Shown: in pieces, positions 1 through 3,000 of the stretch
Position numbering within the stretch: position 1 is the first letter of the stretch
Layout: the number at the start of each line of letters is the position of its first letter
DNA from: a virus
Strand: one strand, 5' to 3'
Length of the DNA: 11,784 nt
Virus genome (UHGV): UHGV-2165552
Position numbers: made by a program

Positions 1-3000
1 CGCCAGCGCGATGTTGCTGCGCTCGATGCAAAATACTCGAGGGAATTAGCCGATGCGAGAGCTGAAAATGAAACTCTGCGTGCTGATGTTGCTGCTGGTC
101 GTAAGCGCCTGCGGATCAACGCCACCTGCTCCGGTACCGTGCGTGAAGCCACCGGCACCTCCGGCATGGATAATGCAACCGGCCCCCGACTGGCAGACAC
201 CGCTGAACGGGATTATTTCATCCTCAGAGAACGGTTGATGACAATGCAGAAGCAGCTGGAAGGGGCACAGGAATATATCCGCACTCAGTGCCTGAATTAA
301 CAGAGCCAGCTTAATCGCTGGCTTTTTCATATCTGAATTTCATCGCGCATCTCACGCGCATATCACATCCCCGAGCCTTTCAGAAAGTTGAGCCTGAGAA
401 CTGCCGTATATGGTGGCGACCATCTCGGGGCGGCTTTTCTGTGAGACAGGCTCAATTTTCTGAAAGGTAAGACGCTATGAACTATCCGACGATTGTTAAC
501 GGTATTGATTTCCGCGATCTTGTTTTTGTGACAGGCAACGAGCCGGTGACGGATACCCGAAAGGTTGCCGTAGCATTTGGCAAAGAACACAAAGATGTAT
601 TGCGGAAAACAAGAGCCGTTGTTCAACAATGCTCAAAAGAATTTGCAGAGCGCAATTTTGCGCTTTGCTATGAAAACAATGAGTTACAGAACGGTAAACC
701 CCAGCCCATATATCGAATGACAAAAGACGGTTGGACGATGTTGGTATTTGGTTTTACGGGGAAAGCTGCTATGACCTTTAAGGAAGCGTACATTCAGGCT
801 TTCAACTGGATGGCTGAGCTTATTCAGCAAGGTCTGGCGAATCTGGAGGCGGAGCGCAACGCTGTAATGCTGGAGTACATGAAAGAGAAAGATGTCGCCA
901 GTATGTCAGGTCGTTTGCTCAATCGCTGGGGCAGGGTGAAGAAGCCTCAGTTGCTGGCAAGGCTGGACAGGCTGGAGCAGCAGGGGCAGATTGCGTTACC
1001 CGGATTTGATAAAGGCATTTCAGCCTGACATAGCCATGCGCCGTATCGTCGCAGTATTCCCGCATTAACAGAGACCTCAGCCAGACACTGGACCTCCTGC
1101 GCGAGTGTGTGGGGATAATCAAAAACGATGCACACCGGGCTTTCCACGTTTTCAGGTAACGTGAGCGTTTTCCCGCATGGCCGCCTGTCCGGTGCGGTGG
1201 TGGAAGAAACCGGATAAAACAACCATATTGTGTAAATATCAATCAAACAAGACGCTGCTGTGTGAATTCTGAAAAATCACAGCGGTCATTATGCGTCAGT
1301 TTTTAACAGAGGACGTCAGAAAGTGACATGGCAAAGCTGGACTGGAAAAAACTGGAGCAGGCATTCCGACGCGAACATGCCGAAACGGGAATAACATTAC
1401 TGGAGTGGTGCCGTAAGAAAAAGATTAATTACAACACCGCCAGAACCCGTATAAAAATGGGCAAAATCGATCATGAAATCGATCATAAAACCGATCATGA
1501 AATCGATCATGACATCTCAGATGAAGAACCCAGCAATGACGCGGGTTCCGACGATGAAAAATGCGCAAAAAATTCTGAAAAAAACTGCGCAAATTCGGCA
1601 GAAACGAAACGCAACAGCAGATCGGGCAATCCTCACCCCGTTGCCCGGTTTAGCGACCGTAACACCCACGCCGTGAGACACCGTGGATATGCGAAGTATC
1701 TTGAGGCAGATAACCTCATGGATGATGCGTCCGATATGGTGCTGTTCGATGAACTGGTGTTCACCCGTGCCCGCGCACTTTCAGTAACAGGAACACTGAA
1801 AAAAATGTTCGCCGACCTGAAAGAGGCGGCTGACGTGGAAACCCGTGTTGCCCTGTACGACAAAATACTTAAAGCCGAACAGGCTCTTGACCGGAATATT
1901 GCCCGTATCGAGTCAATTGAACGCTCATTGCTGACGCTGGACGTTCTGGCGGAAACAGCACCAAAACTTCGTGCTGACCGGGAAAGAATCAACGCTGCCA
2001 GAGATAAACTCAGAGCGGAAACCGATATTCTGACCAGCCAGCGTCGAGGCGTTGTTACGCCTGTCAGTGACATCGTGTCATCGCTGCATGAAATGAGTAA
2101 TTCGGGGAGACTGGATGACATTCCGGAAGAATAAACCGCGATGTGATGAATCTGCAGAAATGACTGAGACCGAACAACGTCTGTTCATTATGACAAAACT
2201 GAGCAATCCCTGGTGGCGCCTCAATCATCTCTACAAAATACAGAACGAAAAAGGTGAACTGGTCACCTTCAGAATGCGACCGGCGCAACGTCAGTTGTTT
2301 CGTAACATGCATAATAAAAACATTATCCTGAAAGCGCGCCAGCTGGGATTTTCCACAGCCATTGATATTTATCTTCTCGACCAGGCATTATTCATTCCGC
2401 ATCTCAAATGCGGGATTGTCGCTCAGGATAAACAGGCTGCCAGTGAAATTTTCCGCACAAAAATTGCTGTACCGTTTGATCATCTCCCTGACTGGCTGAG
2501 AGCCTCATTCACCATCGTTGAACGTCGTAGCGGAGCCAGCGGTGGCTATATCCTGTTTGGTCACGGCTCGAGTATCCAGGTGGCAACCTCATTCCGTTCA
2601 GGTACGGTGCAGCGCCTGCATATCTCAGAGCACGGCAAAATTTGCGCAAAATATCCGGCTAAGGCGAAAGAACTGCGAACCGGTACACTTAATGCCGTCT
2701 CTGATGAGTGCATTATTTTTGATGAATCCACTGCTGAAGGTGTGGGTGGCGATTTTTACGAGATGAGTAACCGGGCACAGGAAATCACTGCATCAGGGCT
2801 GGCGCTGACGCCACAGGATTATAAATTCCATTTTTACGCCTGGTGGCAGGATCTCAAATACAGCGCCAGAGTGCCGGAAAGCGGACTTAAGCTGTCACGG
2901 GAAAAAACAGCGTATTTTTCTGCGGTTGAAAAAGCAATGAACATCACGCTTACCGATGAGCAGAAACACTGGTACATCTGCAAGGAAACTGAACAGCGTG

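Follow-up and report, generated by a model that had tools for sequence, protein, structure and literature searches.

The gene for the small terminase subunit (TerS) of the virus genome UHGV-2165552 contains a compact tandem array of GATC sequences, which raises the question of whether this DNA serves the phage as a packaging signal or is simply a by-product of the protein segment that it encodes. The stretch analysed here, hereafter the window, comprises 11,784 nucleotides of late genes from a lambdoid phage that has a short tail and belongs with 933W, Sp5 and Phi24B. Within it, terS spans positions 1328..2134 of the plus strand, and four 12-bp tandem units, each carrying one Dam site (GATC), lie at 1466..1513 on the same strand. 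Based on sequence comparisons, we propose that these units are the TerS-binding part of a pac site resembling that of phage P1, in a headful phage of the 933W type, a reading to which we assign a probability of roughly 0.6. On this reading the array would be a variant of the P1-type pac arrangement that belongs to another terminase family, and the pattern of multiple cassettes found among related terS genes is the more interesting by-product of the analysis.

The array units read ATCGATCATGAA (1466-1477), ATCGATCATAAA (1478-1489), ACCGATCATGAA (1490-1501) and ATCGATCATGAC (1502-1513), and place GATC at 1469, 1481, 1493 and 1505. Tandem Repeats Finder delimits the array at 1464-1516 (period 12, 4.4 copies, 87% matches, score 85), and a repeat search recovers the four copies in register with spacings of 12, 12 and 12. 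Together with the site search, these results confirm a preliminary description of this DNA, which had reported four head-to-tail units with one GATC each and had also given the encoded peptide correctly: in the open reading frame (ORF) 1328-2134 the array is in frame, occupying terS codons 47-62 (nt 139-186 of 807, in the 5' quarter of the gene) and reading K-IDHE-IDHK-TDHE-IDHD-IS. The pattern A..GATCAT.A., including the GATCAT core, is invariant in all distinct units compared. In the window as a whole GATC is under-represented, with 33 occurrences against 49.3 +/- 6.4 in dinucleotide-preserving shuffles, 198 of 200 of which hold at least as many sites. Given that only about 0.11 GATC would be expected per 40-bp stretch at the density of the window, the cluster reflects tandem duplication and not chance, and the general deficit makes it stand out all the more. 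A solitary GATC at 1620..1623, 112 bp downstream of the array, is found in the sub-lineage of the window only, being missing in the sub-lineage of the Shiga toxin (Stx) 2a phages, and probably lies outside the element.

Assignment of the host gene to the terminase, as presumed in the preliminary description, is backed by profile matches. The 268-residue product of terS matches PHROG 370 ('terminase small subunit', E 1.9e-119), and terL, which follows at 2115..3821 on the plus strand with an overlap of 20 nt, encodes a large terminase (TerL) of the 933W type that matches PHROG 2 ('terminase large subunit', E 3.9e-52). All terS homologues (n=297) bear the label 'terminase' wherever the source gives a name. 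A Pfam scan of TerS and TerL returned no family for either, the P22/Sf6 TerS families included. Typical features of a TerS are nonetheless present, namely a gene directly before terL, a predicted N-terminal DNA-binding domain and a predicted helical core. These domains were delimited in an AlphaFold2 model built from a 26-sequence alignment, which was used for domain boundaries only, since its whole-chain predicted template modelling score is 0.36. The model predicts an N-terminal three-helix helix-turn-helix (HTH) domain (helices 6-20, 24-31 and 35-41; predicted local distance difference test, pLDDT, 86-88), encoded at 1343..1450 on the plus strand and ending in helix 3 with the sequence NTARTRI. 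It is followed by an unstructured segment (residues 46-99, pLDDT <50), a helical hairpin (130-237) and a further helix (245-256). The array begins five codons past HTH helix 3 and encodes the first 16 residues of the predicted disordered linker. A sequence search of the PDB with the TerS family profile gave nothing meaningful (best E 0.22), and a Foldseek comparison of the model with the PDB retrieved generic helical hairpins only (best E 0.13).

The position of the array directly behind the HTH coding region has a close precedent in P1, where hexamers inside pacA are the pac elements bound by PacA and PacB, and where Dam methylation controls cleavage (PMC10028697). The TerS of the window matches phrog_1711, the PHROG that includes P1 PacA, at E 7e-7, and PacA in turn matches PHROG 370 at E 2.8e-4. 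With the PacA-family N-terminus, hhalign gives E 1.5e-4. Direct comparison of TerS with P1 PacA is weak (E 0.002; hhalign probability 51%), and homology of the two HTH domains is accepted because intermediate PacA-like sequences link them. These intermediates are encoded on two contigs of about 92 kb (L137 and L186) found by scanning IMG/VR for GATCA arrays: in blastp the N-terminus of the window TerS aligns with both (E 5.8e-10 and E 2.2e-6, respectively), and the L186 protein aligns with P1 PacA over its full length (E 1.1e-17). In both PacA-like genes the HTH coding region is followed at once by five TGATCA (nt 152-220) that recur every 12 bp; these genes have one main hexamer cluster and, in addition, isolated sites. 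The GATC of the window array fall at nt 141-180. In the annotated P1 record, the pacA hexamers occupy nt 193-232 and 323-351; between these two groups lie a site for integration host factor (IHF; nt 256-268) and the mapped pac cuts (nt 276-285). Another terminase pair of the 933W type (L126) has five GATC in terS (four TGATCA and one CGATCA) with a period of about 12 bp.

P1 and the window are alike in that the gene for the small subunit itself contains the repeats, which in the window are the proposed recognition elements, just 3' of a homologous N-terminal HTH coding region, and in that the short GATC elements are encoded by Asp-His or Asp-Gln codons. The distance from the start codon is similar as well (nt 141 in the window, 193 in P1, 152 and 167 in the PacA-like genes), and the 12-bp period is as regular in the P1 relatives as in the window. 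The similarity does not extend to the remainder of the protein, PacA having 397 residues against 268 in the window TerS, with a different C-terminal core. The spaced GATCA pattern is not diagnostic of pac by itself, since the IMG/VR scan for four GATCA at a 12-bp period returned more than 120 loci, mostly unrelated low-complexity repeats, giant-virus contigs included. Among uncultivated viral contigs, three (L136, L181 and L201) carry an ORF of 87-91 residues with 5-7 or more tandem (T/S)DQK units and GATCA at a 12-bp period, just upstream of a 408-residue ORF; their proteins are unrelated to the window TerS.

In order to place the array within its family, the DNA of terS homologues was taken from IMG/VR, GTDB genomes and assemblies, and the commonest 6-mer was read in terS nt 100-330. 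Members from E. coli, Citrobacter, Yersinia, Serratia, Brenneria and Aeromonas with the HTH helix ARRY or ARRH carry 5-8 copies of TGCGCA; those from Pectobacterium/Brenneria with AKRY carry five copies of TTCGCA; the window type, with ARTR, has four GATCAT; and the Salmonella type, with ARTQ, has 3-5 copies of [TC]GATCA at a 12-bp period. The 107 protein clusters divide by helix type and motif type with zero exceptions, and the composition of the linker differs by helix (AQ/AH-rich with ARRY/ARRH, DH/DQ-rich with ART[RQ], SQ/IR-rich with AKRY). In two Salmonella-type prophage contigs the N-terminal domain has been exchanged for unrelated HTH domains, and yet the C-terminal core of the TerS family is retained. 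Their linker DNA holds three GGTACGAAA followed by two GTACCTCAAAAA in one case (L117 2001-2816), and two to three TCCGTC followed by three inverted GGACGGA in the other (L116 2001-2834). The sister cassettes thus share with the window the gene, the position, a similar copy number and spacing, the C-terminal core and the TerL partner, and differ in motif, in HTH sequence and in having no Dam site in the motif. The TGCGCA, TTCGCA and GGTACGAAA arrays are also not strict tandem duplications, unlike the array of the window.

That TGCGCA and TTCGCA matter as DNA is evident from their codon usage. A single gene holds TGCGCA in each of the three frames, as CTG CGC AAA (LRK), AGT GCG CAG (SAQ) and TGC GCA AAA (CAK), and several frames are likewise used by the TTCGCA and GGTACGAAA arrays, TCCGTC being the exception. 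When synonymous codons were resampled with the protein held fixed, the 5-7 observed copies of TGCGCA or TTCGCA compared with a mean of 0.4-1.1 (P <= 1e-4 in 10/10 representatives). Being far above the synonymous-codon expectation, these arrays have been selected as DNA and not as protein.

The HTH and the array also move as a unit. The window and one relative (L035) show 100% identity over two stretches, one running from 150 nt before terS to nt 55 of the gene and the other from nt 255 onward (more than 700 bp), and share only 10-70% identity between nt 55 and nt 255. Over the 1.2 kb compared, the HTH part and the array swap together as a cassette of about 200 bp, corresponding to an exchangeable 'specificity cassette' at 1383..1582 of the plus strand that covers HTH helices 2-3 together with the array and the acidic linker. 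As the two cassettes sit in 100% identical flanks (150 bp upstream, >700 bp downstream), the pair offers an unusually clean test system. A second mosaic segment is found at 1598-1660 (terS nt ~270-330), where family members from E. coli, Salmonella and Citrobacter have one of two alternative versions of about 16 residues (RNSRSGNPHPVARFSD or RIRGSRLLPPSNAFSQ), combined with any N-terminal cassette; between the window and the Stx2a type, identity falls to 30% at this segment.

The preliminary description had suggested a pac site, with P22 and Sf6 as precedents. The family-wide motif arrays, the HTH linkage and the PacA homology lend comparative support to the pac site itself, whereas P1 is the better precedent, because the HTH is homologous to PacA and the P1 pac hexamers lie at the same place. 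Several known sites share parts of this organization. In lambda cosB, the R elements bound by the HTH of gpNu1, plus IHF, likewise present several repeats on curved DNA, although lambda is a cos phage. The pac sites of SPP1 and SF6 also consist of several short repeats read by the HTHs of a TerS oligomer on curved DNA near the cut (PMC9611059). Unlike the window array, however, the SPP1/SF6 and lambda sites lie largely outside or upstream of HTH-linker coding DNA, and their motifs and proteins are unrelated. P22 and Sf6 resemble the arrangement proposed for the window in being headful phages with pac inside terS (PMC9611059), an arrangement in which recogniser and site are genetically linked, and the portal of the window is of the P22 type; the pac of P22 is, in contrast, a single asymmetric 22-bp sequence with no repeat array and no GATC theme. 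The 933W type of TerL has been classed as headful from TerL trees (PMC7317114, PMC6029569). The 933W-like short-tailed Stx phages are the principal stx2a carriers, and a literature search found no mapped pac or cos site for them.

Binding of TerS to the repeats, the position of the cut, the direction of packaging and any dependence on methylation are what we infer for this site, in the following form. TerS would bind the array DNA in order to start headful packaging, the linker DNA behind the HTH carrying the binding sites of that same HTH, one per 12 bp, in predicted curved DNA. A TerS oligomer could engage several repeats together through its HTH domains and recruit TerL (2115-3821), the presumed nuclease and motor, which would cut nearby, whereupon headful packaging would proceed.

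The DNA around the array has features that could suit such a complex. Phased A-tracts and predicted intrinsic curvature extend over 1451..1610, enclosing short repeats on both sides of the array. Directly upstream, at 1453..1466 on the plus strand, lies AAAAATGGGCAAAA, which resembles the TGCGCA-type element in degenerate form; the matching codons in sister lineages read CTGCGCAAA. This stretch is a direct repeat of 1557-1570, 104 bp away (93% identity), both copies conforming to AAAAATG(G/C)GCAAAA at 1453 and 1557. Downstream, a second short repeat at 1557..1593 of the plus strand consists of two TGCGCAAA (1562-1567 and 1586-1591) in A5-A7 tracts, retained from the TGCGCA-type arrangement; the count of two is marginally above the synonymous-codon expectation (P = 0.04), and some relatives (L004, L023) have lost one copy. 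Of 2333 sliding 120-bp segments, the 12 with the strongest AAA periodicity (~11.5 bp) all fall within 1451-1645. In an AA-wedge model the two highest curvature peaks of the window are at 1575 and 1459 (53 and 48 degrees, mean 12.8 +/- 7.7), a result to be taken as qualitative. An inverted repeat at 1435-1449/1542-1556 (80% complementary) was also considered and judged likely to be due to chance.

A number of observations weigh against a P1-like pac function. P1 has two clusters (4 + 3 hexamers, TGATCA/G) that flank the IHF site and the mapped cut, whereas the window has a single tandem cluster with the core GATCAT. No match to the IHF consensus WATCAANNNNTTR occurs in the window, which has phased A-tracts instead. 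The window TerL gives no blastp alignment with P1 PacB better than E = 5, so that the terminase as a whole is not P1-like. For one 933W-like phage, PhageTerm returned 'Mu-like' and no pac call (PMC7946995), and the small terminases of other phages that package from pac show only weak binding to it in vitro (PMC9611059). The co-variation of HTH and motif could result from linkage alone, given that the two coding stretches adjoin. Nor does a simple 'recognition code' relate the helix residues to the motif, since P1 (ARRY) and L126 (GRRY) use TGATCA, and the ARRY lineages of the TerS family use TGCGCA. In the resampling test that gives significance for TGCGCA and TTCGCA, the array is not significant (P = 0.18 for GATC and 0.06 for GATCAT; P = 0.33-0.47 for the Salmonella arrays), because Asp-His and Asp-Gln codons nearly force GATC. 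Finally, all four units share one reading frame, and their number is not strictly fixed among relatives.

These last points are also those that favor the best-surviving alternative, namely that the array is a slippage-prone coding microsatellite whose only effect is on how long and how charged the disordered, His/Asp-rich linker between the HTH and the oligomerization core is, GATC being a by-product of Asp-His codons with no role at the DNA level. We regard this as unlikely, but it deserves serious weight. Codons 47-62 fall within the segment predicted at pLDDT <50, a protein-driven origin of GATC is not rejected by resampling, and many unrelated viral genes hold GATCA repeats of 12-bp period of the (xDQx)n type. 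On the other hand, the homologous stretch is under strong DNA-level selection in the sister lineages, with other hexamers and in three frames, and PacA-family genes with a homologous HTH hold GATC arrays at the same place, which in P1 are functional pac elements (PMC10028697). Moreover, GATCA is constant across the GATC-type lineages, even though the residues next to Asp differ greatly and either His or Gln is used.

Copy number bears on both readings. The 141-bp array region was screened in 5,426 complete E. coli genomes and is present in 386 of them (387 records), of which about 370 (~95%) retain four copies exactly, and 17 lack 12 bp. The four-copy state spans sub-lineages about 7% apart in terS; the terS region of the window itself is 98.7% identical to that of Escherichia phage PhiR5_2 and 92-93% identical to those of more than 190 Stx-converting phages. 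As the preliminary description had anticipated, slippage does alter the number of units, and alignment of related terS genes for variation in the 12-mer revealed forms with one (P0062/L119), two (P0014), three (L120), five (P0023 and L003) and seven copies (P0002/L118) beside the predominant four. The three-copy form is an intact 264-residue gene in a complete E. coli O26 genome, the five-copy L003 has 99% protein identity to the window TerS, and the seven-copy form arose via a duplicated 36-bp block of three units. The three-, five- and seven-copy genes look intact, as a mere linker would allow, and the one- and two-copy forms are on short contigs. Slippage thus occurs, yet four copies are strongly preferred, a persistence that counts against a purely coding microsatellite. 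All changes are in frame, and therefore do not provide on/off switching. In E. coli O157:H7 7.1_Anguil (L121; NZ_CP076232 4563381-4565865), an ISEc8/IS66-family element is inserted in the array after the first unit; this terS is truncated and annotated as a pseudogene.

A further alternative, which we consider improbable, is that the GATC cluster is a Dam- or SeqA-responsive element independent of the terminase, for example one where sequestration by SeqA times late-operon transcription or the passage of replication forks. Its appeal lies in the spacing of the four GATC, about one helical turn apart, against the window-wide deficit, and in Phi24B, which has an identical array of four GATC and encodes its own Dam (PMC3342100). 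This gene (L242 2560-3087; HM208303 17559-18086) lies in the nin region and is annotated as a Dam-type N6-adenine methyltransferase with an NPPY motif. Against such an element, a promoter scan of 1000-2300 around terS revealed no promoter-like site, and no homologue of the Phi24B Dam was found in the 41 kb examined of PhiR5_2, the genome closest to the window. Nor would a Dam/SeqA role explain why most TerS family members carry non-GATC motifs at this position.

The least probable alternative is that terS translation or the TerS:TerL ratio is tuned by a structure in the mRNA or in single-stranded DNA to which the palindromes of the units (ATCGAT, GATC, TCATGA) give rise. For the RNA of 1440-1620, the predicted folding energy is -40.9 kcal/mol (z = -3.3 versus shuffles), with the array units pairing mutually. 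Any self-complementary array would fold so, however, changes in copy number would rearrange the fold, an Rfam search gave no match, and the sister motif TTCGCA is not palindromic, so that the structure is not a shared family feature. The fold probably just follows from the palindromic motifs.

Returning to the array as a pac site, the presence of GATC in every repeat raises the possibility that the Dam methylation state governs binding or cleavage as at P1 pac, tying packaging to the state of DNA replication. Dam dependence has been demonstrated for P1 and is proposed for the window by analogy; based on that precedent and on the Dam of Phi24B, methylation control at the array is plausible as a tentative suggestion, though less likely than not. 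A broader proposal, also tentative but slightly easier to entertain, is that the TerS family consists of interchangeable reader-plus-site cassettes, in which each HTH type would read its own hexamer (4-8 repeats, about one helical turn apart, within the DNA for its own linker), a TerS ring would derive its specificity from multivalent wrapping, and the start of packaging would be Dam-gated, as in P1, in the GATC cassette of the common Stx2a phages (933W, Sp5, Phi24B).

Sequence-specific recognition by ring-shaped small terminases is still called unresolved (PMC9611059), and a family with at least five motif/HTH cassettes on one core is of use for the question of TerS sequence specificity. A concrete candidate pac site also helps to interpret phage-mediated transduction in enterohaemorrhagic E. 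coli. In P1, synonymous recoding of the pacA hexamers has yielded packaging-defective or packaging-biased constructs (PMC10028697), and the candidate site permits the design of similar ones here. Should the GATC sites prove functional, a Dam enzyme of host or phage origin would act, through methylation, as a regulator of Stx-phage packaging, and a Dam-gated cassette, if real, would amount to an epigenetic checkpoint on the production of Shiga-toxin phage virions and on transduction.

The remaining genes of the window are those of a late region. Between the lysis genes and terS, positions 477-1028 encode a Rha-like regulator with an ORF11CD3 domain (antirepressor-like). In relatives this slot holds KilA-N/ORF11CD3 or P22_AR_N genes instead, and because the genes differ it looks like a variable, moron-like slot. 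Downstream of terL follow the P22-type portal gene (3821-5965), a capsid gene (7153-8367) and a gene for a collagen-like tail fibre (10517-11784), which continues past the end of the window. In the fibre protein, a stretch rich in Ala, Glu and Lys precedes a Gly-X-Y domain of the collagen type that is over 180 residues long. The gene has repeats at 10949-11013 and 11556-11591, the latter being a perfect 9-bp repeat in four copies that encodes (GPP)n inside the collagen-like domain.

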